A stretch of DNA of 64,000 nucleotides from Candidatus Altiarchaeota archaeon (GTDB taxonomy: Archaea > Altiarchaeota > Altiarchaeia > IMC4 > SCGC-AAA252-I15). Location: assembly GCA_043800705.1 (NCBI GenBank), contig JAZDMS010000040.1, positions 10,378 to 74,377 of the forward strand. The letters are read 5' to 3'. This document shows positions 9,366 to 61,326 of this stretch, in pieces. The notes beneath the pieces are model-generated. The model saw only the letters and a program-made list of their open reading frames with translations. It did not search any database and was not told where the DNA came from. Each line of letters begins with the position of its first letter. Position 1 is the first letter of the stretch. The translations under genes and the position numbers were made by a program.

Positions 9366-10876
9366 TCGTCCTCGACTTCGGAGGCCAGTACTGCCACCTC
9401 ATAGCACGGAGGATAAGGGAGCTTGGAGTCTACTCCGAGGTCATGGCCTCCGACACGTCCGCAAAGGAACTCAAGGCAACGGGCGGCCTCAAGGGTGTCA
9501 TCCTCTCCGGCGGAGCCGCATCCGTCTACGACGCAGGCAGCCCGAAATACTCCCCTGACCTACTCGAAGCCGGAGTCCCGATACTCGGCATCTGCTACGG
9601 CCACCAGCTGATAGCGCACATTGCGGGCGGATCCGTCGAAGGCGGGAAGGCCGGAGAATACGGGCTCACGGAGCTCGCAGTCATGAAGGCGGAAGGCATC
9701 CTGAAGGGGGTCAACGGCCGCACGCCGGTCTGGATGAACCACCGCGACGTAGTGACCAAACTCCCGCCCGCGTACAAGGTCCTGGCCACAACCGCGAACA
9801 CGCCTGTTGCGGCGTTCGGCAACCCTAAACAGAACATTCACGGCGTCCAATTCCACCCCGAGGTGACCCACACCCGCGAGGGGATGAGCATACTCGAGAA
9901 CTTCGTCGAGATATGCGGCGCAAGCCGCGACTGGAGCATGAAGGACTTCACCGTCAACTCCGTAGAGGAGGCGAAGTCGGTCATCGGCGGAAGGAGGGCG
10001 ATCATCGGCCTGTCCGGCGGAGTCGACTCGTCGGCCGCTGCGGTCCTCCTGTCACGGGCCATCGGCGACAGGCTCACGGCGGTCTACGTCGACACCGGCC
10101 TCATGCGCTACCGAGAGACCGAGTTCATGGAAGAGACCTTCTCGGGCAGGGAGATGGACTTCAGGATCGTCAGGGCCGCCGACAGGTTCTTCGCGGCATT
10201 GAAGGGCGTCACCGACCCCGAGCAGAAGAGGAAGATTATCGGGGGCCTGTTCGTAGACATATTCGAGGAGGAAGCCGTGAAAGTCGGCGCCGAAGTCCTC
10301 GTCCAAGGCACGATATACTCGGACCGGATAGAGTCCGGGGTCACCAAGCACTCGGACAACATCAAAAGCCACCACAACGTCGGCGGACTCAAGGAGAAGA
10401 TGAAGCTGGAAGTCTACGAGCCGCTCCGGGACCTGTACAAGGACGAGGTCCGCGAGATCGCAAGGCAGCTGAAGCTCCCGGAGAAGATAATCACAAGGCA
10501 CGTGTTCCCCGGCCCCGGCCTCGCCATAAGGATCATCGGAGAAGTCAACCCGAAGACGGCGGACATATGCAGGAAGGCGGGCAACATCGTCGAGGAGGAG
10601 CTGAAGAAGGCGGGAATCTACGAAAAATACTGGATGGGGTTCGCGGTCCTTCTGCCGATAAAGAGCGTCGGCATCCAGGGCGACTGCCGAAGCTACAAGC
10701 ACCCCGTCGTCGTGCGCATAATCGAGTCGAAGGACGCCATGACCGCCAACTTCAGCAAGGTCCCCTACGAGGTGTTGGAGTCCATATCGACGAGGATAAC
10801 GAACGAGATAGCCGACATCAACAGGGTCGTCTACGACATAACCAACAAGCCCCCAGCGACCATGGAATGGGAGTGA
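9353..10876 (+). CDS. guaA: GMP synthase (fused glutamine amidotransferase + ATP pyrophosphatase)
   Basis: LDFGGQY, GICYG, QFHPEV, SGGVDS, IKSHHNVGG, FPGPGL and KPPATMEWE motifs. Confidence 0.97.
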   Translation: MEKIVVLDFGGQYCHLIARRIRELGVYSEVMASDTSAKELKATGGLKGVILSGGAASVYDAGSPKYSPDLLEAGVPILGICYGHQLIAHIAGGSVEGGKAGEYGLTELAVMKAEGILKGVNGRTPVWMNHRDVVTKLPPAYKVLATTANTPVAAFGNPKQNIHGVQFHPEVTHTREGMSILENFVEICGASRDWSMKDFTVNSVEEAKSVIGGRRAIIGLSGGVDSSAAAVLLSRAIGDRLTAVYVDTGLMRYRETEFMEETFSGREMDFRIVRAADRFFAALKGVTDPEQKRKIIGGLFVDIFEEEAVKVGAEVLVQGTIYSDRIESGVTKHSDNIKSHHNVGGLKEKMKLEVYEPLRDLYKDEVREIARQLKLPEKIITRHVFPGPGLAIRIIGEVNPKTADICRKAGNIVEEELKKAGIYEKYWMGFAVLLPIKSVGIQGDCRSYKHPVVVRIIESKDAMTANFSKVPYEVLESISTRITNEIADINRVVYDITNKPPATMEWE

Positions 10877-10889
10877 CGGCGGTCCAAAC

Positions 10890-11630
10890 CTACAATACGA
10901 CACTCTCTTGGCCGCTGACCCATCTGGCTATCTCCTGCGGGCTCGCATGTTCTATCTGGTGCATCCTGACGTCCGCCGCCGACTTGAGAAGCTGGAACAG
11001 GATTAGAAGCAGGGTCGGGCCTGCCATGCTCAGATAGTCCGCCGTGCTCCCCAGTCCAACGAGATACAAGCCCATGGACAGAAAGATCCCGCCGACGTAG
11101 ATAAAACCCGAGGCGATTATGGTCAGGTGCATGGGCAAAATCCTGGCGAACGGGATTGCAGCCACGACCCCTATGTTCAACCTTTTTGAGCTATCCTCCC
11201 TGACATTGTGTATGTAGGAGAATCCGTGGTTGACGAGGAATATTGCCACGGCCAGGAGCATCCACGGAATCTCCCCCGACAGGATCCGGTATCCCATATC
11301 ACTCAAGGCAAAGAGCAGGAATACGGCGTAGGCGGCATGGAAAAATCCGAATCCGATAATAAAAATGACGGTCACCCAGGCTTTCACGGCCGATGAAGGG
11401 GTCAACGGCAGGCCGTTTATCTCCACCCCTTCGGTGGAATAATCCCCGAGGCTGAGCATCCTAAGTAGGCTGAATAGCCCGATGATGAGGCTCTGGCACC
11501 AGTAAACCCACAGGACCGTCATCAGGTTCCAACCCTCCAAGACAGCCAGCAGAATCACGAACAGATTAGAGGCTGCAAGCGACACTGCCGAAGGATCAGA
11601 CCATGCACTCTTCGCCGCCGCCTCAGGCAT
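10890..11630 (-). CDS. Multi-pass membrane protein (DUF6498-like)
   Basis: LAASNL...GW..VLWVYW, FGFFH, PFARILPMHLTII pattern. Confidence 0.7.
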   Translation of the reverse strand: MPEAAAKSAWSDPSAVSLAASNLFVILLAVLEGWNLMTVLWVYWCQSLIIGLFSLLRMLSLGDYSTEGVEINGLPLTPSSAVKAWVTVIFIIGFGFFHAAYAVFLLFALSDMGYRILSGEIPWMLLAVAIFLVNHGFSYIHNVREDSSKRLNIGVVAAIPFARILPMHLTIIASGFIYVGGIFLSMGLYLVGLGSTADYLSMAGPTLLLILFQLLKSAADVRMHQIEHASPQEIARWVSGQESVVL

Positions 11631-11682
11631 AGCCTATATCTGACTGCAGTGATAATAAACCCTCAAACAAAGTAACTATGCT

Positions 11683-11778
11683 ATGAGAATCCGCGACATC
11701 GGCGGCGAATTCACGCTAATCAACCGACTCGTATACGACATAACCAATAAACCCCCCGCGACCATGGGGTGGGCGTGA
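11683..11778 (+). pseudogene. Chimeric remnant: thiL 5' end fused in frame to guaA 3' end
   Basis: MRIRDIGGEFTLIN-RLVYDITNKPPATMGWA* versus ThiL MKIKDIGGEFALIN and GuaA INRVVYDITNKPPATMEWE*. Confidence 0.85.
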
Positions 11779-11781
11779 ACG

Positions 11782-12975
11782 TCAAAGCCCGGTTATTCTG
11801 TATCTGATATTCTTTCCGGCAGTTCCGTAACCCGCTTCGAATTCCAGCCTAGCCTCTTTATCCAGGTATCTGCCGGATATAATCCCTTTATCCTGCCATT
11901 GCGTGCCATTACCCTCAGCATCGAAGGAGACCGCGTAGTCATACTCTCCCCCCTTTACCCCACCGCAGCCGGGCCCTGAAGCCATCCCGTTCAACTGGAA
12001 TACCATAGTCTTTGTGAACCTGACTACGGGCTTCTCGGCGAGATCCTGGTCCAGGAAAGTTCCCTCAGGCATCATATCCCCGTAGCCCCTACCGCCAGTA
12101 ATCCCCTGGTTCTGGGGCGGGTCCATGTCGACCCCATCCATCATCAAATTAGTTATCCTGCAATCGACTCCGTTCTTTGAGATTTTAAGGGTTGACCCGT
12201 CCAACTCCCCCTCTTCCCCCCCAAACACCAGGGTGAATACCGATTTGTCCGGCTCCGATGAGCCGAAGAAGGAAATGGGCGCGATAGCCAGCCTATCGAA
12301 ACCGTCGACCCTTACGACCTCCGTCGGATTCAGGGGGCTGAGACCCGTCACGGATGAAAAAGCGAGCAGGAAAAAGATTGATGCCCCAAACAGCATCCCC
12401 CCCGGAATCAGCCAACATAGGACAGCCTTAATAGCGCTCATCCTGCAGGTCTGACGAAGGATAAGCGTCAGCAGATAGAATGAAAAAATATGCGGGATAT
12501 AGCTTACGACGATAGCCCCCATTCCAAAGACCGGCGATATGACCCTCTCCAAAATCCCCTGGATCAACGGCTGCACAACAGCGGCGATGAGGATATAAAC
12601 CGGGAAATAAACCGACGCCATCATATAATAGAGCTCAGTGAACGTGCATCTTCCGCCAAGGATCCGTGCGACAAGATACTCCCCTCCTGCAAAAATGAAC
12701 GAGGCAATGAGGCCCATGATGGGATACCCGACCAGGCAGAAGATGAACATGAGGCCTACGATCACAAGGGGGCTCCCGGTTGCCAGCATCATGAGGGGCA
12801 GGGCAAACGCAGCAAACAATGACGCAATAAGGACGACTTCCACGCCTCTCGTCATGGATGCCCGAGGCAGCTGCCTGGAAATCAGGGCGGAGGGGTTTTT
12901 AAACAAAAGAACGGCTTTTTCGCGGAACCTCAATTCCACGCTCAAATCATTTGCAGAAACCGGCTCACCTTCCAC
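11782..12975 (-). CDS. Yip1-like membrane protein with extracellular C-terminal domain
   Basis: About 5 TM segments with ARILGG..F, followed by a soluble domain with paired Cys. Confidence 0.65.
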   Translation of the reverse strand: MEGEPVSANDLSVELRFREKAVLLFKNPSALISRQLPRASMTRGVEVVLIASLFAAFALPLMMLATGSPLVIVGLMFIFCLVGYPIMGLIASFIFAGGEYLVARILGGRCTFTELYYMMASVYFPVYILIAAVVQPLIQGILERVISPVFGMGAIVVSYIPHIFSFYLLTLILRQTCRMSAIKAVLCWLIPGGMLFGASIFFLLAFSSVTGLSPLNPTEVVRVDGFDRLAIAPISFFGSSEPDKSVFTLVFGGEEGELDGSTLKISKNGVDCRITNLMMDGVDMDPPQNQGITGGRGYGDMMPEGTFLDQDLAEKPVVRFTKTMVFQLNGMASGPGCGGVKGGEYDYAVSFDAEGNGTQWQDKGIISGRYLDKEARLEFEAGYGTAGKNIRYRITGL

Positions 12976-13040
12976 TGAATAATCTATCTGCGGGAATCCC
13001 TTAAATAATCCCTATATCATCCGATCCGTCAGAACAAGGA

Positions 13041-13072
13041 TCAGCAAAGTCCGGTACGAAGTGTTGGCGTCC
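13041..13072 (+). repeat. Diverged fragment of guaA 3' region
   Basis: 27/32 nt identical to 10752-10783; SKVRYEVLAS versus SKVPYEVLES. Confidence 0.7.
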
Positions 13073-13078
13073 CTCACA

Positions 13079-13729
13079 TTATTCCGATCGCCTGCAGTAT
13101 CCGGTCACACAATACAGGTTGCCTATCTTTTTGACTTCATGACTGGGGAAGCCGCTTTCCGCCATCAACGAATCCACGCGGCTTCTACTGTAGAAATATA
13201 CTTCACACCCTCCCAGCATCAGCCTCGTCTTTCTGATAGGTGCCCTCCAGGTCATCAGCCTGGGAAAAGATAAAACGACCACGTCCCCTGTCGCATCCCG
13301 CATCTTCTTGAGTAATGGCAGAGGCTCCTTAACGTAGTCGAATAATCCCATGCCTATGCACGCATCGAATTTCTCTGCGCCAACGTAGGCGTCTAGGCTC
13401 GAATGTATGAAACTGCATCTGTCATCAACGCCGTTTTCCCGGGCGTTTCTCCTGGAAAGCCTTACCATGTTTTCCGATATGTCCAGGCCGACCACGCGCA
13501 GGGCTCCGTGTCTTGCGGCTTCCACGCTGTACTTCCCGCTTCCGCATCCCACGTCAAGAACAGTTTTCCCCTCCAATGGCCGGATCTTTCCCATCGCATA
13601 CTCGAATCGCCCGTACATGTCTGCCCTGAAGATGCGGTCGATCAGGTTCGACAACGCCGACTTATCGTGAGAATAAATCTTCTGGAACGACTCCGACTCG
13701 CTATTCCAATATTCCCTTTGGGTTTTCAC
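13079..13729 (-). CDS. Class I SAM-dependent methyltransferase
   Basis: VLDVGCGSG, VVGLDIS and FD motifs; likely GTG start overlaps the upstream stop. Confidence 0.85.
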   Translation of the reverse strand: MKTQREYWNSESESFQKIYSHDKSALSNLIDRIFRADMYGRFEYAMGKIRPLEGKTVLDVGCGSGKYSVEAARHGALRVVGLDISENMVRLSRRNARENGVDDRCSFIHSSLDAYVGAEKFDACIGMGLFDYVKEPLPLLKKMRDATGDVVVLSFPRLMTWRAPIRKTRLMLGGCEVYFYSRSRVDSLMAESGFPSHEVKKIGNLYCVTGYCRRSE

Positions 13730-14547
13730 AGCTCTAGACCCTCCCTTATGCAAGTGAACCTGAAATCATCTAAAAGGCGCTCAAGCCGCCCGCGAGTCCC
13801 CCCGAGATTGCGGTAATGCCTGAACCTCTTGGTTAAGGGCAGTTCCACGCGAGGCTGCCCGGGATCGAGCTCCCAGGGATGTATATAAAAGACTACTGGC
13901 CGGCCATTATTATTGCAATTCCTGATACAGTACCTTGTATAGGCATACGGGAATATGCGGAAGTAGCCGCCGCCGCTGCAAGGCAGCCGCATGCCGAAAA
14001 ACTCCGCGCAGGAGAGCGGGAATTCGGTTATTCCGGCGGATATCTTGTACGGCTTAAGCGGCGCATCGGGCACGCCATAATCCGGATGGAAAGAGATAGG
14101 AAAAACTGACGAGTCATACTTGAGCCCATATTCCTCCAACACCTCCAACGCCCAAAAAGTCTCCGGTTTTAGCGTGAATGAGGGAGCCCGGTACCCCAGG
14201 ATTTTCTGTTTAACGCCGCAGTCCCTGACGCAGTCCAAGGCCTTCCCGACGTCTATCCTAAATTCTTCCTTATCCATCTGGCTCAACAGTGAATGGCCGT
14301 ATCCGTGAATCCCTATCTCATGGCCGGCCTCGTCTATCTTCCGGATCAGATCAGGTACACGCTCCGCAATCCATCCCAAAACGAAGAAAGTGGCCTTAAC
14401 CTTGTGGATTTCGAGCAGATCAAGTATCTGGTTTAACCCAATCCCGACTCTCAACTCGCATGAGTCCCAATTGCGTCTGTCGATGACCCGGCTGAGATTG
14501 CTGACGCAAAACCAATCCTCCACATCCACGGAAAAATAATTCAACAT
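13726..14547 (-). CDS. Polysaccharide deacetylase (DUF3473-type)
   Basis: SVDVEDW, ATFFVLG, HEIGIHGYGH, GYRAPSF, YDSS, GGGYFR and YIHPWE motifs. Confidence 0.9.
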   Translation of the reverse strand: MLNYFSVDVEDWFCVSNLSRVIDRRNWDSCELRVGIGLNQILDLLEIHKVKATFFVLGWIAERVPDLIRKIDEAGHEIGIHGYGHSLLSQMDKEEFRIDVGKALDCVRDCGVKQKILGYRAPSFTLKPETFWALEVLEEYGLKYDSSVFPISFHPDYGVPDAPLKPYKISAGITEFPLSCAEFFGMRLPCSGGGYFRIFPYAYTRYCIRNCNNNGRPVVFYIHPWELDPGQPRVELPLTKRFRHYRNLGGTRGRLERLLDDFRFTCIREGLEL

Positions 14548-14683
14548 ATGCCGGTATAGTATTACCCCGCAGGATAAAAAATCTCCAGCTTAAAAACCGC
14601 CCTCAAACGGGGGATTGATGCGTCGGATCCTTAGGCGACGACGCTCTTGACACATATGAAGCCAACGGAATACGATAGAACGA

Positions 14684-15280
14684 TCAGGCATCCTTCTCGA
14701 TGCCGTCGGCTATATCGCATAATACGTTGATCATCTCAGCCATCCTCTTTGGCTCGTAGATTATCCTCCGGCTCTTGAATAAAATCTCCCCCTGTTCTGT
14801 CGATACCTCATCCCTGCTGTGAATCATCAATCTTTTCAGCCTGGATTCCACCGAATCGGTAAACACTCTGGCAGCTTTTGACTTGTCGGGCGCATAAATG
14901 TTCAATTCCCCGTTTTTCCCCTCGCCTCTTTTTACGAGAAAATTGTCGCTCTCACCCTCGTATGCCGCATATACCCATGTCGCATACCTCTCGATCAATC
15001 CTTTCCTTTCGAGTCGCACCCCCGCTTGTCTCCCCCTCACCTCGAAATCCACGCATGTTCCCGGATTCCATCCATCTGGTATTTCGCACCCCAGTTCCTC
15101 TGAAAGCTCCCTCAGCACCCTCTGAAACCTTGGTTTGGTGCTGATCTCATACCACATATACGGTTGGCTGCCGCTCAGCAGTATCATGCCCCCCTTCGGG
15201 CCGATCAAACGGGCGACTAACAGCATAAAGGCTGCGAAAGCTAACAGGATAATGGACGCCAGAGAAGAACTAATCTCCAT
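14684..15280 (-). CDS. Hypothetical protein with N-terminal membrane anchor
   Basis: 198-aa ORF with hydrophobic N-terminus. Confidence 0.6.
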   Translation of the reverse strand: MEISSSLASIILLAFAAFMLLVARLIGPKGGMILLSGSQPYMWYEISTKPRFQRVLRELSEELGCEIPDGWNPGTCVDFEVRGRQAGVRLERKGLIERYATWVYAAYEGESDNFLVKRGEGKNGELNIYAPDKSKAARVFTDSVESRLKRLMIHSRDEVSTEQGEILFKSRRIIYEPKRMAEMINVLCDIADGIEKDA

Positions 15281-15319
15281 GGTGTTTTATTCATCTCAGT
15301 ACAATAAATGCAAGATAAC

Positions 15320-16264
15320 ATGAAAATCAAGGACATAGGCGGCGAGTTCGCCCTCATCAACAGGGTTGCTCGGCCTGGCGGGGCGGTCGTCGGAGTAGGC
15401 GACGACGCGGCGGTCCTGAAGTATACGAAGGAGCGGTATCAGCTTTTCACGACCGACATGCTCTGCGACGGCGATCATTTCCGCCGCGACTGGGCCAGCC
15501 CCGAACAGATAGGGATGAAGGCGATGGAGGTCAACGTCTCAGACATCGCAGCAATGGGCGGCCTCCCCACATACGCTGTCATCTCAATATCACTGACACA
15601 TGACACGTCGGTCGAGTTCATGGACCGCCTCTACAAAGGCTTGTACCACGTCGCCGACAAATACGACCTCAACATCGTCGGCGGAGACACCACGCACGCG
15701 GACATGATGGTCATAAACGTCTCAATGCTCGGAGAAGTGGAAAAGGACAGATTATGCCTGCGCTCAGACGCGAAGGTCGGCGACCTCATATGCGTCACAG
15801 GCGACCTCGGAAAAAGCGCCGCAGGCCTCGAACTTTTGAAGGGGGGAATGCGCGGCGAGCTCACAGCGTATCTGGAGCCGAAATGCAGGCTAAAGGAGGC
15901 CAGGAAAATCTCACACTATGCAAACGCGATGATAGACGTCTCCGACGGCCTGGCAAGCGAAGTCAACCACATCTGCCATATGAGCAAGGTCGGGGGCCTC
16001 GTGAGAAAGGAGGACATACCCATATCCAAATCCACTATCGAATCCGCGCATAAGGTCGGCAAAGACCCGTACGATTACGCATTGAACGGGGGGGAAGACT
16101 TCGAGCTCGTGTTCACCGTCCCTCAAGCGTACCTGGGGAAGGTGGCGCACATAGATTGCCCGGTCACTGTCGTCGGAGAGATAGTGGAGAAAAGGCAGGG
16201 TTTGACGATTGAGTCGTGCGGCAGGAAAAAGCCCCTGAAGGGAGGATACGACCACTTCAAGTAG
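15320..16264 (+). CDS. thiL: Thiamine-monophosphate kinase
   Basis: GEFALI, GDDAA, NVSDIAAMG, GGDT, DVSDGL, GGEDFEL and GYDHF motifs. Confidence 0.95.
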   Translation: MKIKDIGGEFALINRVARPGGAVVGVGDDAAVLKYTKERYQLFTTDMLCDGDHFRRDWASPEQIGMKAMEVNVSDIAAMGGLPTYAVISISLTHDTSVEFMDRLYKGLYHVADKYDLNIVGGDTTHADMMVINVSMLGEVEKDRLCLRSDAKVGDLICVTGDLGKSAAGLELLKGGMRGELTAYLEPKCRLKEARKISHYANAMIDVSDGLASEVNHICHMSKVGGLVRKEDIPISKSTIESAHKVGKDPYDYALNGGEDFELVFTVPQAYLGKVAHIDCPVTVVGEIVEKRQGLTIESCGRKKPLKGGYDHFK

Positions 16265-18669: not shown

Positions 18670-18809
18670 CGGTCTTCCGTCTATCGCCCTGGCAAACGGT
18701 CCCGTCTTGGGCCTTGTTTGCGGCATGGGCTTGTTGCGGCGTCAGCCATCCATCAGAGAGACTGAGGCCTGAGGCCGAATGTCTCTCATTCGCCGGCCTT
18801 AGAAGGCCG

Positions 18810-18857
18810 CAGGAGAACTTCAAGGAAATGCACCAGCAGCTGCCGATGTACCGCTGA
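18810..18857 (+). repeat. Synonymously diverged copy of the last 15 codons and stop of the PAC2 gene
   Basis: QENFKEMHQQLPMYR* is encoded at both 18622-18669 and 18810-18857. Confidence 0.9.
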
Positions 18858-20803: not shown

Positions 20804-21076
20804 GTGGCGGACATCCGGAAGTGGCTTCTTGGATCGACGCGCAGGTGGCTCCGGCGCGGTTCTCGCCCCCGCACCCCCACAAGCACAGTCCACTGAAGTT
20901 ATGGCTGCTGCCTTCCGGCCCTGACCAGATTCCTAAAATAGACCATCCAGTGAGACGAAGGCTCACGGTTCCGCACCGGACCCGCACGGCAACCCAAGAC
21001 TCGCCTCCCGGCATTCAGCCCCGCCTAAGACGATTTGCGGCAACAGGCTACGCCTACCAGCCCGGCCTAGTCCACC
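20803..21076 (-). ncRNA. ffs: Signal recognition particle RNA (7S RNA)
   Basis: Minus strand begins GGTGGACTAGGCCGGG, contains helix-8 motif GGTCAGGGCCGGAAGGCAGCAGCC, and 5' GGTGGAC pairs with 3' GTCCGCC. Confidence 0.9.
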
Positions 21077-21151
21077 GGTCAATGTATACGCAAAATCAGA
21101 TTAAAAAACCAACCTCTCTCGCTCTTATACCTGGAAAATAATTTTTGTATT

Positions 21152-22572: not shown

Positions 22573-22642
22573 CCTCCCGGCACTCAGCCCCGCCTAAGAC
22601 GATTTGCGGCGGCAGGCTGCGCCTGCCAGCCCGGCCTAGTCC
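22573..22642 (-). repeat. Diverged copy of the SRP RNA 5' end
   Basis: 65/70 nt identical to 21004-21073. Confidence 0.9.
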
Positions 22643-36426: not shown

Positions 36427-36466
36427 ATCACTCCCCCCGCTTTATTCGGCCCCTCTTTCTTTTTCG

Positions 36467-36505
36467 CCAGCGTTTTTCTTTCTGGGAGAGAAAGAAAAAG
36501 GCTGG
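36467..36505. repeat. TTTTTCTTT/AAAGAAAAA hairpin element
   Basis: CCAGC-G-TTTTTCTTTCT...AGAAAGAAAAA-G-GCTGG; resembles 32630-32669. Confidence 0.65.
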
Positions 36506-36509
36506 GCTT

Positions 36510-36566
36510 GAACCACTTCAACCTGAACGGCTGATGGACTTGAAAGTATAGGCAGACTGAAGTCAT
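36510..36566 (-). repeat. Synonymously diverged copy of the first 19 codons of the GH57 gene
   Basis: MTSVCLYFQVHQPFRLKWF is encoded at both 36566-36510 and 36426-36370. Confidence 0.9.
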
Positions 36567-57754: not shown

Positions 57755-58630
57755 TCATTCTTTCAAGGCCGCCAAGAGCAGGTCCCTGCCTTCCTGGTAT
57801 ACCGGAACCCTTCCTGTGATGTCAAGGGTTTTGGTGCTGTGGTATGACAACGCCTCGTTCACGTTTGCCACGGTCAATCCCTCGAGCCGTATCCTCCTCG
57901 TCTCCGGGTTCATCCCCGCAAAGGTGCGGATCTCATCGTCGGATGCGGGTTGAAAGTCGTTGTCTCCCCTGTAGATTCTTCCCTCTATGAAACCGAGCCT
58001 GCTGTCGCCATTTGCCACTCCCCTTATCATGGAATGGATGAACATCTTTTGGACTGCCTGCCCGCCTGCTTCGGCCTGTCCTATCACTTCCCTGGCCTTG
58101 CTGGCCAGGCTTTCGACGACTTTAGGTTCTCTCACGATCCGTGCAGGCCTTTTCAGGAGCATTCTCCCCTCTGTGTCGGGAACGTTCATGGGAAACCTCT
58201 GCCAAGGCGCCGAAGCCAATGCCTTAGGGACGTCATTATCTAGGATCTCATTCGACACGTTTCCTGCCGCGTCCATCCCGATTCGCGTAAAAGTCGCGGG
58301 TATGTGGCTTTTTTCGTCATAGAAGCCGTCGGGGACAGAATAGGCCAAATCCTTGATTTTGCCGTCCCTGCCGTATGTCACTTTAACTCCGTCAAGCACC
58401 GGGTTGGCGACCGCTGCAGTCCTTCCTCCGTCAGCATTCTGCACGGGATTCACCTCCACGAGCGGCATGCCGCCTTTGACTGCCGCCCAGGCACTGGTCA
58501 GGAATTTTTTCCCGTCCGTCAGGGTCTGCCTGTCCGTCCACGCGCTAATCTGCATCCTCGTGAGGTCTTCCCTAATCCTATCCAACGGGTCAGCCTGTCC
58601 TCTCCTTTCTCCCGTAACCTCTATCGCCAT
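57755..58630 (-). CDS. Hypothetical protein
   Basis: About 291-aa ORF; no recognisable motif. Confidence 0.55.
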   Translation of the reverse strand: MAIEVTGERRGQADPLDRIREDLTRMQISAWTDRQTLTDGKKFLTSAWAAVKGGMPLVEVNPVQNADGGRTAAVANPVLDGVKVTYGRDGKIKDLAYSVPDGFYDEKSHIPATFTRIGMDAAGNVSNEILDNDVPKALASAPWQRFPMNVPDTEGRMLLKRPARIVREPKVVESLASKAREVIGQAEAGGQAVQKMFIHSMIRGVANGDSRLGFIEGRIYRGDNDFQPASDDEIRTFAGMNPETRRIRLEGLTVANVNEALSYHSTKTLDITGRVPVYQEGRDLLLAALKE

Positions 58631-58690
58631 GATATTTATCCGATGGATAAGCATAAAAGGGCGCTATTATCCTCCCCATTCCTTTTATTT

Positions 58691-59803
58691 ATGATGCTAT
58701 TGCGCAAGCGACAGCCCATTGACTCCCTAAAGGACGGAAACATGGTTGATGACGTCTTCGCCGTGAAGCTGAAGAAGGGCGTCCAGCCCTATGCGAAAGG
58801 CCACACGTTCCACCTACTGCTCACGGACTCCAGCGGCAGGAGCATCGACTACAAATACTGGGGCGGACCGGACGCCGCCAAGGTGAAGGCATTGTACGAC
58901 AGCATCCCCTCCGACGGCGTCGTCCATGTCCTGGGGAAGGTGACGACCTATCAGGACAAGCCGCAGATATCCACCAACGAACCTGACACGGTCCGGTCAT
59001 TGGCGGAAGGGGAATACGACAGTTCGGACTTCATCCCAGTCGCAAGGAGGGACGTCGAGGCCATGTGGGCGGAACTGGAAGGCCTCATCGGCGGCGTAAA
59101 GGACCCAGCGACAAGGGAACTCCTCGAAACGGTGTTCAACGACCCCCGGATACGGGAGAAATTCAAGAATCACCCCGGCGCAATAGAGATACACCACAAC
59201 TGGGTCGGCGGCCTCATGCAACATACCCTCGAAGTCGCGGAATATTCCCTTTTGAGCAGGAAGCTCTTCCCAGACCTCGATATGGACATACTCGTCGCAG
59301 GCAGCCTCCTGCACGACATCGGCAAGCTTGAGGAGATAGAAGTCAAGGCGAGGATCAAGGGCACCAAAAAAGGCCAGCTGAAAGGCCACATCTCGCTGGG
59401 ATATGCCTTTGTCTCGAAGGTAATCGATAGGCTATGCTCTGACGAGGCGGTTTCCAGTTCTCAGTTTCCAGTCTTGACGGAAAACCGAAAACCGAAAACC
59501 GAAAACGGAAAACCGAAAACCGAAAACGGAAAACCGAAAACCGAAAACGGAAAACCGGAAACAGAAGACCCTCGGCAGGAGAAATATGATAAAATTCTCC
59601 ACATCGTCCTCAGCCACCACGGCAGCCTCGAATACGGGAGCCCGAAGCCGCCGATGACGCCGGAGGCCTTCGCAGTATACTACGCGGACGAGATGAGCTC
59701 GAAGCTGGCGGAGATAACCGACTACGTGAAATGGGCGAGGGAGAACACCGACGACGACTTCATGTACCACAAAAGGCACCAGAGGAACATACTCCTAGAT
59801 TGA
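58691..59803 (+). CDS. OB-fold + HD-domain protein (YhaM/Cbf1 3'-5' exoribonuclease family) with in-frame repeat insertion
   Basis: LTD.SG OB fold, P.A...HH...GGL..H, LLHDIGK, GHI, SHHG...YGSP..P.TPEA and AD motifs. Confidence 0.88.
   Translation: MMLLRKRQPIDSLKDGNMVDDVFAVKLKKGVQPYAKGHTFHLLLTDSSGRSIDYKYWGGPDAAKVKALYDSIPSDGVVHVLGKVTTYQDKPQISTNEPDTVRSLAEGEYDSSDFIPVARRDVEAMWAELEGLIGGVKDPATRELLETVFNDPRIREKFKNHPGAIEIHHNWVGGLMQHTLEVAEYSLLSRKLFPDLDMDILVAGSLLHDIGKLEEIEVKARIKGTKKGQLKGHISLGYAFVSKVIDRLCSDEAVSSSQFPVLTENRKPKTENGKPKTENGKPKTENGKPETEDPRQEKYDKILHIVLSHHGSLEYGSPKPPMTPEAFAVYYADEMSSKLAEITDYVKWARENTDDDFMYHKRHQRNILLD
59449..59570 (-). repeat. Palindromic heptamer-repeat element, copy C (inside a CDS)
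   Basis: (AGTTTCC/AGTTCTC)n-AGTCTTGACG-(GAAAACC/G)x11 plus 2 degenerate units. Confidence 0.9.
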
Positions 59804-59842: not shown

Positions 59843-59943
59843 AGCCTGCAGTCTACAGTTCTCAGTTTCCAGTTCTCAGTCTTTGCCGAGAACCGTAAAC
59901 CGGGAACCGAAAACCGTAAACCGAAGACTGGAAACCGGAGACT
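59843..59943 (-). repeat. Palindromic heptamer-repeat element, copy D
   Basis: (AGTTYYC)n-AGTCTTTGCC-(GRRAACC-like)n between convergent stops. Confidence 0.8.
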
Positions 59944-59949
59944 TCCAAC

Positions 59950-61326
59950 TTAGCCCCTGTACCTCAGCAGTTCATCGATCCTGTGCAGCTGCACGATGTT
60001 GGTCGTAGGCTTGTCCGTGTATAGTCCTGCCGTGAAGAGGACGAGGTCGTTCTTGCGGACGAGGCCCGCCTTGGCGCAGAACTTGGCTATCCTCAGGATG
60101 CGGTGGCTGTGCTTGAAGTATTCGTGGTAAGCCGGGGTGACTGCGTAGACGAGGTGCAGTCTCCTGCACACGGCCTGGTCGTCGGTTATGGCTATTATGT
60201 CCTTTCCTATCCGTGAGTCCGATATCAGCATCGCAGTGTATCCGGACCTTGTGGCGACGACAATCTTGTCGACGTCGACTGTGTCGATGGCGGCGGCCAC
60301 GGCCCTCGTCATCGCAAGCGGTATCTTGTCGTGTATGTCCTCAGCAAGGGTGTTCCTTGGCATGTGGGTCTCTACCTCGAGCGCGATCTTCGTCATGGTC
60401 TTCACCGACTCCACAGGGTATTTCCCGACAGCTGATTCGCCTGAGAGCATCACGACGTCCGATCCGTCGAGTATGGCGTTGGCGACGTCGCTCGTCTCCG
60501 CCCTCGTCGGTTCGGGGCTGTTCTCCATGCTCTGCAACATCTCCGTAGCCACAATGGATAGCTTCCCCTTTCTGTTGACCTTATTGATGAGGTCCTTCTG
60601 GATGAGTGGAATCCTCTCCGGAGGTATCTCTATCCCGAGGTCTCCGCGGGCGATCATGAGGCCGTCGCATGCGGCCAATATCGCGTCGGCGTTGTCGACG
60701 CCCTCCTGGTTCTCGATCTTGGCGATTATGCCGGCCTTGTATCCGCCGAGGGCCCTCTTCAGGTTGGCTATGTCCCTCTCGTCCCTCGTGAACGACAGGG
60801 CGACGTAGTCCAGCTTCAACTCCTTCACGAGCCTTATGATGTCCAGGTCGTTGTCGGACAGGGTCGGGATCTTCAGCTTCCTCCCCGGGATGTTCACGCC
60901 TCCGCCGTCCTTGAGGACGCATTCCTCGCAGACCGTCAGCCTTATGCGGCCGCCTTTTTTGGCGGAGACCTTAGCCGACACCCTGCCTTTGTTCAAGAGT
61001 AGTTCGTCGCCTATCCTAAGCTGGCTGAGGATGTTCCTGTTGAACGAGACCTCATCCCCTTTATCGGATCCTATCCACACCGAGCCCCCCTTTTCGACCT
61101 CGATGCTGTTCCTGCATTTGAGCCTGATCTCGGGGCCTTTGAGGTCCATGAGCACGGGGATGTCGGCGACTTTTCGGATGGTGTCGGCAACCTTCCGATA
61201 TTCGTCCACTGTCCCGAAGGCGGTGTTGATCCTTACGCCGTTCATCCCGGCCTTGTGCATCCTCGTCAGGACCCCCCTGTCCGACGATGCCGGGCCGATG
61301 GTGCAGAGGATCTTTGTTTTTTTCAT
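59950..61326 (-). CDS. pyk: Pyruvate kinase
   Basis: KTKILCTIGPAS, DLKGPEIR, AKIE, MIARGDLG, PTRAE.SDVANA and MLSGESA.GKYP motifs. Confidence 0.96.
   Translation of the reverse strand: MKKTKILCTIGPASSDRGVLTRMHKAGMNGVRINTAFGTVDEYRKVADTIRKVADIPVLMDLKGPEIRLKCRNSIEVEKGGSVWIGSDKGDEVSFNRNILSQLRIGDELLLNKGRVSAKVSAKKGGRIRLTVCEECVLKDGGGVNIPGRKLKIPTLSDNDLDIIRLVKELKLDYVALSFTRDERDIANLKRALGGYKAGIIAKIENQEGVDNADAILAACDGLMIARGDLGIEIPPERIPLIQKDLINKVNRKGKLSIVATEMLQSMENSPEPTRAETSDVANAILDGSDVVMLSGESAVGKYPVESVKTMTKIALEVETHMPRNTLAEDIHDKIPLAMTRAVAAAIDTVDVDKIVVATRSGYTAMLISDSRIGKDIIAITDDQAVCRRLHLVYAVTPAYHEYFKHSHRILRIAKFCAKAGLVRKNDLVLFTAGLYTDKPTTNIVQLHRIDELLRYRG

Follow-up and report, generated by a model that had tools for sequence, protein, structure and literature searches.

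How does a reading frame that begins as one housekeeping gene and ends as its neighbour come to lie between intact copies of both? The question is raised by a 64,000-nucleotide stretch of DNA from an archaeon of the phylum Altiarchaeota, the whole of which we refer to as the window. In it, the genes for GMP synthase (guaA) and thiamine-phosphate kinase (thiL) are separated by 4.4 kb, counted from the guaA stop to the thiL start, and this interval holds, in that order, a cassette X1, a 31-codon open reading frame (ORF) and a second cassette X2 (Table 1). The short frame is built from a thiL start and a guaA end, and in the following paragraphs we ask what kind of exchange could have produced it, from which DNA its two halves came and what else in the genome resembles it.

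The anatomy of the frame is simple. Its thiL-like part, B′, matches the start of the live gene (15320–15361) with 79% identity over 42 nt, and its guaA-like part, A′, matches the end of the live gene (10817–10876) with 83% identity over 60 nt, the stop codon counted; in the same repeat search, the two parts overlap inside the chimera in the six letters ATCAAC (11719–11724). On the protein level, the original prediction had put the agreement at 11 of 14 residues with the ThiL start and 16 of 19 with the GuaA end, and a recount from the translations gave the same figures. When the 31-residue peptide was compared by tblastn with the whole assembly (2.0 Mb in 43 contigs), the end of guaA (E=1.5e-7) and the start of thiL (E=7.7e-4) were found and nothing else meaningful. 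The chimera is confirmed as an in-frame thiL-5′::guaA-3′ fusion. Its similarity to the parents ends precisely at its own ATG and TGA: the 80 nt on each side are unlike the flanks of the live genes (946 of 2000 shuffles score as high upstream, 1905 of 2000 downstream), and this comparison reveals no remnants of a shared promoter or spacer beside the copies. In Rfam the chimera has no match, the sole match within the window being the SRP RNA. Most likely, the 31-codon ORF is a recombination joint that would have no function of its own.

Table 1. Coordinates of the locus and of the two-hairpin element sites (positions refer to the window unless a contig is named)
Feature	Position	Strand	Basis
Live guaA, glutamine-hydrolysing GMP synthase, 507 aa	9353..10876	+	NCBIfam NF000848, Pfam GATase + GMP_synt_C
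12-mer CATCAACAGGGT in guaA, codons D-I-N-R-V	10816..10827	+	window match count
Cassette X1, one DUF6498 membrane-protein gene with 13-nt and 52-nt spacers	10877..11682	-	Pfam
DUF6498 membrane-protein gene of X1	10890-11630	-	Pfam PF20108, E=1.6e-38
In-frame chimera ORF, 31 codons, novel recombination joint	11683..11778	+	translation, tblastn
B′, diverged copy of thiL codons 1-14	11683..11724	+	repeat search
A′, diverged copy of the final 19 guaA codons and stop	11719..11778	+	repeat search
Cassette X2, four minus-strand envelope-type genes	11779..15319	-	Pfam, NCBIfam
Yip1-like membrane protein, X2	11782-12975	-	Pfam
Class I methyltransferase, X2	13079-13753	-	Pfam
XrtA-type polysaccharide deacetylase, X2	13726-14547	-	NCBIfam TIGR03006, 332 bits vs cut-off 276
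Unknown 198-aa protein, X2	14684-15280	-	ORF
Live thiL, thiamine-phosphate kinase (alternative ORF start 15308)	15320..16264	+	NCBIfam TIGR01379
12-mer CATCAACAGGGT in thiL, codons L-I-N-R-V, same frame as in guaA	15355..15366	+	repeat search, window match count
Two-hairpin element site	18789-18854		
Two-hairpin element site	36463-36566		
Two-hairpin element site, contig C18	34887-35055		
Two-hairpin element site, contig C19	19955-20171		
Two-hairpin element site, contig C26	21437-21613		
Two-hairpin element site, contig C33	4072-4201		
Two-hairpin element site, contig C23	475-660		
Two-hairpin element site, contig C10	~6423		
Two-hairpin element site, contig C42	~25507		
Two-hairpin element site, contig C22	~34398		

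Both parent genes are complete, lie outside the insert and score above their NCBIfam equivalog cut-offs (681 bits against 400 for guaA, 308.8 bits against 184 for thiL). Each is present at full length once in the 2.0-Mb assembly, as judged by tblastn, and the genes on the left flank run in the order thiM, thiE, guaA. The live GuaA terminates in MEWE, a motif that is retained in all eight relatives compared, and A′ terminates in MGWA; from MEWE to MGWA, the joint has begun to decay.

At the joint, the parents share short identity, seen in the ATCAAC overlap and in an in-frame 12-mer of the live genes. The original prediction had placed the switch of the chimera at such an identical 12-mer, and indeed CATCAACAGGGT is common to live guaA and thiL exactly where the fusion changes from one to the other, but the chimera itself retains only 8 of its 12 bases (ATCAAC and two more). 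The 12-mer has two matches in the 64-kb window against 0.01 expected, a count that none of 100 shuffles reached, and around it the repeat search aligns guaA 10804–10827 with thiL at 20 of 24 identical nucleotides. In the four relatives with adjacent genes, the longest run common to the end of guaA and the start of thiL measures 6–9 nt; judging by these sequences, the exact guaA/thiL 12-mer is specific to this genome.

The order of the genes before the insert can be read from the relatives. A DNA search over 41 genomes (this one and 40 relatives) gave matches in 32, and in four of these, G003, G001, G016 and G006, thiL directly follows guaA, the junctions being gaps of 0–28 nt or start/stop overlaps. 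Because the two genes abut or overlap in these four relatives, the tight guaA|thiL pair is, by comparison of gene orders, ancestral and the 4.4-kb insert derived. On the DNA level, X1 and X2 have no match in any of the 40 relatives. In G002, which belongs to the same genus, the guaA|thiL boundary is broken too, with other genes beside each partner and the partners on separate contigs: convergent unrelated genes follow guaA after 3 nt (contig C50, locus L022), and other minus-strand genes precede thiL (contig C186, locus L023). This second break suggests that the boundary is a recurrent breakpoint. In two more distant family members (G005, contig C22; G013, contig C33), no more than about 175 nt separate the thiE match from the thiL match, and guaA has its place elsewhere. 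It therefore seems that the order thiE-guaA-thiL, shown by two genera, goes back to an insertion of guaA between the other two genes in their common ancestor.

The cargo between the two genes is of two unrelated kinds. X1 and X2 have no similarity on the protein or DNA level (best blastn E=1.2), and we rejected the idea that they are diverged copies of one cassette. Likewise, we dropped the idea that the cargo stands out by a foreign composition, its GC3 being ordinary (percentiles 0.22–0.47 among 1858 ORFs). Pfam and NCBIfam scans of the five cargo proteins found no integrase, transposase or recombinase domains. Among relatives, the genes are patchily distributed: the DUF6498 gene occurs in 3 of 21 family genomes, this one counted, with a best foreign match of 43% identity, the Yip1-like gene in this genome and, as a weak match, in one other of the 49 order genomes, and the deacetylase in 7 of 21 family genomes and in none of the four other genomes of the genus. 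A metagenome scan with the DUF6498 protein returned four loci with 28–49% identity, and beside none of them was a match to guaA or thiL found. The genome also carries a paralogue of the DUF6498 gene of X1 on contig C37 (43034–43528, 41% amino acid identity), in which a stretch of 38 nt is 88% identical on the DNA level to about 11209–11246 of the window.

The geometry of the joint narrows down its origin. The chimera runs from a thiL start to a guaA end, the reverse of the ancestral order from guaA to thiL, and because the order is inverted relative to the ancestor and both parent genes are intact outside, only an exchange of the duplication type can have produced such a joint, be it an unequal crossover or the Campbell-type integration of a circle that had closed between the two short repeats. 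The segments on its two sides are not mutual copies, and therefore the present block is not a plain tandem duplication. Two insertions that displaced both native ends were considered and rejected, as they would leave a guaA end followed by a thiL start, which is not the observed order. A random templated patch, in which a 96-nt filler was copied into a break within one large insert, is an unlikely origin, given copies that are bounded exactly by ATG and TGA. As for Tn7-like targeting, the accessible part of the preprint 10.1101/2025.07.27.667033 does not mention guaA, and transposon ends are not seen at this locus. Judged by titles and abstracts, the papers that literature searches brought up describe neither this locus nor thiL::guaA hybrids.

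The confirmed joint belongs to a known kind of recombination scar, here well preserved and in an unusual organism. In the classical genetics of Salmonella and E. coli, tandem duplications whose join points lie at short repeats create hybrid ORFs at the junction. Our chimera has the same build, with the 5′ part of the distal gene leading in frame into the 3′ part of the proximal gene at a short shared sequence and with both parents intact, but the units that flank it are not copies of each other; therefore, either the parents differed in cargo or a duplication of about 100 bp was later invaded twice. A second point of comparison is given by elements that integrate into the 3′ ends of protein genes and leave displaced ends behind, such as e14 or phage 21 in icd and islands at guaA. 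These share with our locus the succession of a live gene end, an insert and a diverged dead copy of the gene end, whereas the locus has neither an integrase nor an identical att core, and its dead end is fused to the start of a neighbouring gene. In homology-facilitated illegitimate recombination during DNA uptake, the incoming DNA has a homologous anchor at one end and is attached through a microhomology at the other. This would yield the observed joint if the donor was guaA-X1-thiL, but the comparisons of guaA resolve no anchor or mosaic breakpoint: its sliding-window identity and maximum-likelihood trees of the gene halves (8 sequences) are star-like and contain no supported switch. Finally, in replacement-type flexible genomic islands, the same core genes enclose alternative envelope cassettes from strain to strain. 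The envelope-type cargo, its patchy occurrence among relatives and the broken boundary in G002 are reminiscent of such islands, but in our case a single genome holds both cassettes, one behind the other and separated by the preserved recombinant joint, and alternative alleles were not observed.

The divergence of the two copies bears on the source of the halves. Over the 31 codons, the chimera differs from the live ends with a pS of 0.575 and a pN of 0.103, and the resulting pN/pS of 0.18, reflecting mostly silent divergence, favours an origin of the halves from diverged functional alleles. We simulated a copy that decays neutrally in situ next to a live gene that changes only silently, and replacement changes were as few as observed in 427 of 37,680 runs (1.1%). 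With other transition biases the fraction ranged from 0.2 to 1.9% of runs, and with silent sites of the live gene mutating twice as fast the tail grew to 2–11%. At two replacement differences, B′ reads R and L where the live thiL, in agreement with G003, reads K and V; among the other relatives, G001 has both R and L, G006 and G002 have R, and G016 and G006 have L. Nearly all derived changes are carried by A′, where all eight relatives side with the live gene at 5 of 10 differing sites.

Displaced gene ends are not confined to this locus. A self-search of the 1858 ORFs, with codon-by-codon comparison of the pairs and dN/dS analysis, uncovered further gene-end duplicates, and in six of seven small cases the spacer next to the outer copy contains a shared two-hairpin element with the motif TTCGCC(A/G)GCC..GGC(T/C)G. 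Of 13 sites of this element, 10 have direct repeats of 21–149 nt on their flanks that are significant, the right-hand copy beginning immediately where the hairpin ends. Differences between the duplicates are almost all silent, with pN/pS values of 0.02–0.21 in six of eight pairs. At some sites the stem is lengthened by heptads of the CTTTCTT type, and the form of the element recurs in another Altiarchaeota assembly (loci L057, L058 and L064). Gene termini are clearly places at which this genome tends to undergo additive recombination. Beside the chimera and at the cassette borders, the palindromic motif and its hairpin are absent, and the chimera therefore stands outside the class of the hairpin element. 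For Ca. Altiarchaeum, PMC11602168 reports a very high density of MITEs.

Several observations made along the way stand on their own. The hairpin motif also matches a high-copy repeat in gut assemblies of Clostridia, Oscillospiraceae and Prevotella (loci L038–L117), which consists of AAAAAG, TTCGCCAGCCTT-TC-AAGGCTG and a second hairpin and is often located at contig ends; this repeat is probably unrelated to the archaeal element. On contig C15 (7396–8361), a two-gene cassette that resembles, by translation only, an antitoxin and a PIN-type toxin lies directly upstream of an RNA-cyclase-like gene and is preceded by a diverged copy of codons 1–28 of that gene (61% amino acid identity, pN/pS 0.43). 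The window contains the archaeal SRP RNA gene (20805–21077, minus strand, by Rfam), of which 69 nt (21004–21072) recur with 93% identity about 1.5 kb away (22573–22641), a repeat that was found via a spurious ORF. In an ORF at 58304–59803, an internal stretch of 37 amino acids is copied 45 nt downstream of the frame, at 59848–59958, with 59% identity.

On balance, we tentatively favour an origin of the joint in a single unequal crossover, or integration of a circle, between two cargo alleles. Its starting point is the ancestral contact of guaA and thiL, which by chance code for resembling peptide stretches in one and the same frame, (V/I)NRV towards the end of guaA and INR(V/L) towards the start of thiL. 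Two alleles, guaA-X1-thiL and guaA-X2-thiL, would each have acquired a cargo of its own in the tiny guaA|thiL spacer. An illegitimate exchange at the short similarity would then have linked two DNA copies, one contributing the 5′ end of thiL and the other the 3′ end of guaA, either through one unequal crossover between the two alleles or, equivalently, through the integration of an excised circle. In the product, both outer genes, guaA and thiL, would be intact, X1 and X2 would be stacked between them and a thiL5′::guaA3′ hybrid would lie mid-way. The exact boundaries at ATG and TGA and the lack of similarity between X1 and X2 would follow from the cargo that each parental allele carried, and we count in favour of this route the patchy occurrence of the cargo among relatives, the R and L that B′ has in common with several of them, the second break of the boundary in G002 and the silent-site bias that other gene-end duplicates of the genome display as well. 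Against it we count the ordinary composition of the cargo and the guaA comparisons, in which no mosaic is resolved.

A crossover between thiL of one allele and guaA of another had been the original prediction, and the geometry, with its ancestral order and intact parents, fits it, though not it alone; its second allele, donor or circular form did not turn up in the order genomes, the species-representative collection, the metagenomes or the ThiL N-termini that we searched. A degenerate junction pattern recovered the chimera in one of 49 order genomes, namely this one, and had no match in the species-representative genome collection. Among the 30 ThiL N-termini that were read out of 120 listed (967 relatives at E<=1e-10), the best by eye agreed with B′ at 13 of 16 positions (P0014), and the live gene agrees at 12 of 16. 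We infer both the existence of two cargo alleles and the single step of their crossover. The degree to which the alleles had diverged pulls in two directions: if they were diverged, the shared 12-mer is left as a coincidence, and if they hardly differed, as variants of one strain do, the low pN/pS becomes a tail event of 1–11%, the upper value with the faster silent rate in the live genes. The confinement of the live 12-mer to this genome, with runs of 6–9 nt in its relatives, favours an event within the lineage over one between diverged alleles.

A possible though doubtful alternative is that the exchange was local and older than the cargo. While the genes still touched, slippage between 12-nt direct repeats about 100 nt apart would have duplicated the unit of guaA end and thiL start, turning the pair into guaA|chimera|thiL, and X1 and X2 would have been inserted later and independently, one at each boundary of a stop and a start. 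The exact, genome-specific 12-mer at the switch and the 20 of 24 identical nucleotides around it look like a substrate for slippage, the concentration of derived changes in A′ is as expected of a decaying local copy, a foreign donor was not found in our searches, and the differences by codon position, 4:4:11 by our own count, are not far from the roughly 1:1:1.7 expected. Yet both insertions must then have struck spacers of a few nucleotides while sparing the neutral target of 96 nt between them, so that, given the exact boundaries, this route needs a site-specific insertion hot spot, for which the evidence is weak. In addition, the junction codons differ from the 12-mer at 4 of 12 nt, and the replacement changes are too few for a decaying copy (p about 0.002–0.02, rising to 0.11 with the faster silent rate in the live gene). 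We consider it improbable that the 902-bp unit of guaA-end copy, DUF6498 gene and thiL-start copy is a circle-borne cassette that moves between Altiarchaeota lineages, with the chimera as an attP-like joint and with excision and integration by exchange at the INRV core that guaA and thiL share. If this was true, the use of gene termini as attachment points would be a genome-wide habit of the lineage, and the 12-mer of the live genes would be the footprint of repeated exchange from core to core. Rather improbable, too, is a site-specific element, of which X1 and B′ would be the remnant; it would have targeted the guaA 3′ end and supplied a replacement end, leaving A′ as the displaced native one. 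In bacteria, integration into the 3′ end of guaA is known; here an insert of 0.9 kb does have a direct repeat of the final 60 nt of guaA on its flanks, and the genome has many other displaced gene ends. Against such an element speak the absence of integrase, transposase and recombinase domains from X1 and X2, the lack of an identical core (the longest exact run, of 14 nt, is internal to the repeat, and the edge shares only ATCAAC), the thiL-start arm beside the core, which it leaves unexplained, the absence of the palindromic element of the other scars, and the DUF6498 loci, none of the seven examined having a guaA or thiL match nearby.

Two further readings concern the status of the frame more than its mechanism. 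An artefact of assembly or binning, in which the contig merges two related organisms or rests on a chimeric read, is a thought invited by a metagenome-type assembly of 43 contigs and 87.5% completeness and by halves that resemble functional alleles of another lineage. We consider it very unlikely: strings of more than 16 nt from 11600–11850 recur nowhere in the assembly and the single recurring 16-mer is unrelated, the 6-nt overlap at the joint is far below the k of any assembler, and the MGWA of A′, set against MEWE in eight of eight relatives, marks a copy in decay, which the live guaA of another organism would not be. Equally slim, on the sequences at hand, are the chances that selection would retain the 31-codon ORF, be it as a small protein or as a leader, a reading compatible with any of the origins above. 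Its frame is open, its pN/pS is low and an AT-rich, TATA-like stretch can be read in the sequence about 28 nt upstream of the ATG, but the ORF is absent from the other genomes searched (the 49 order genomes and the species-representative collection), the invariant GuaA end is lost and an Rfam match is absent.

As a single locus with an ordinary type of scar, the chimera alone raises no new question. It does, however, record base by base how accessory envelope genes came to be piled up between two housekeeping genes that had been tightly packed, and it does so in Altiarchaeota, an uncultivated phylum without a genetic system. Together with the other displaced gene ends of the genome, the scar suggests that illegitimate or additive recombination is frequent in this lineage, and it illustrates that two unrelated neighbours can recombine at a short stretch of peptide similarity that they share in frame, with neither gene damaged.
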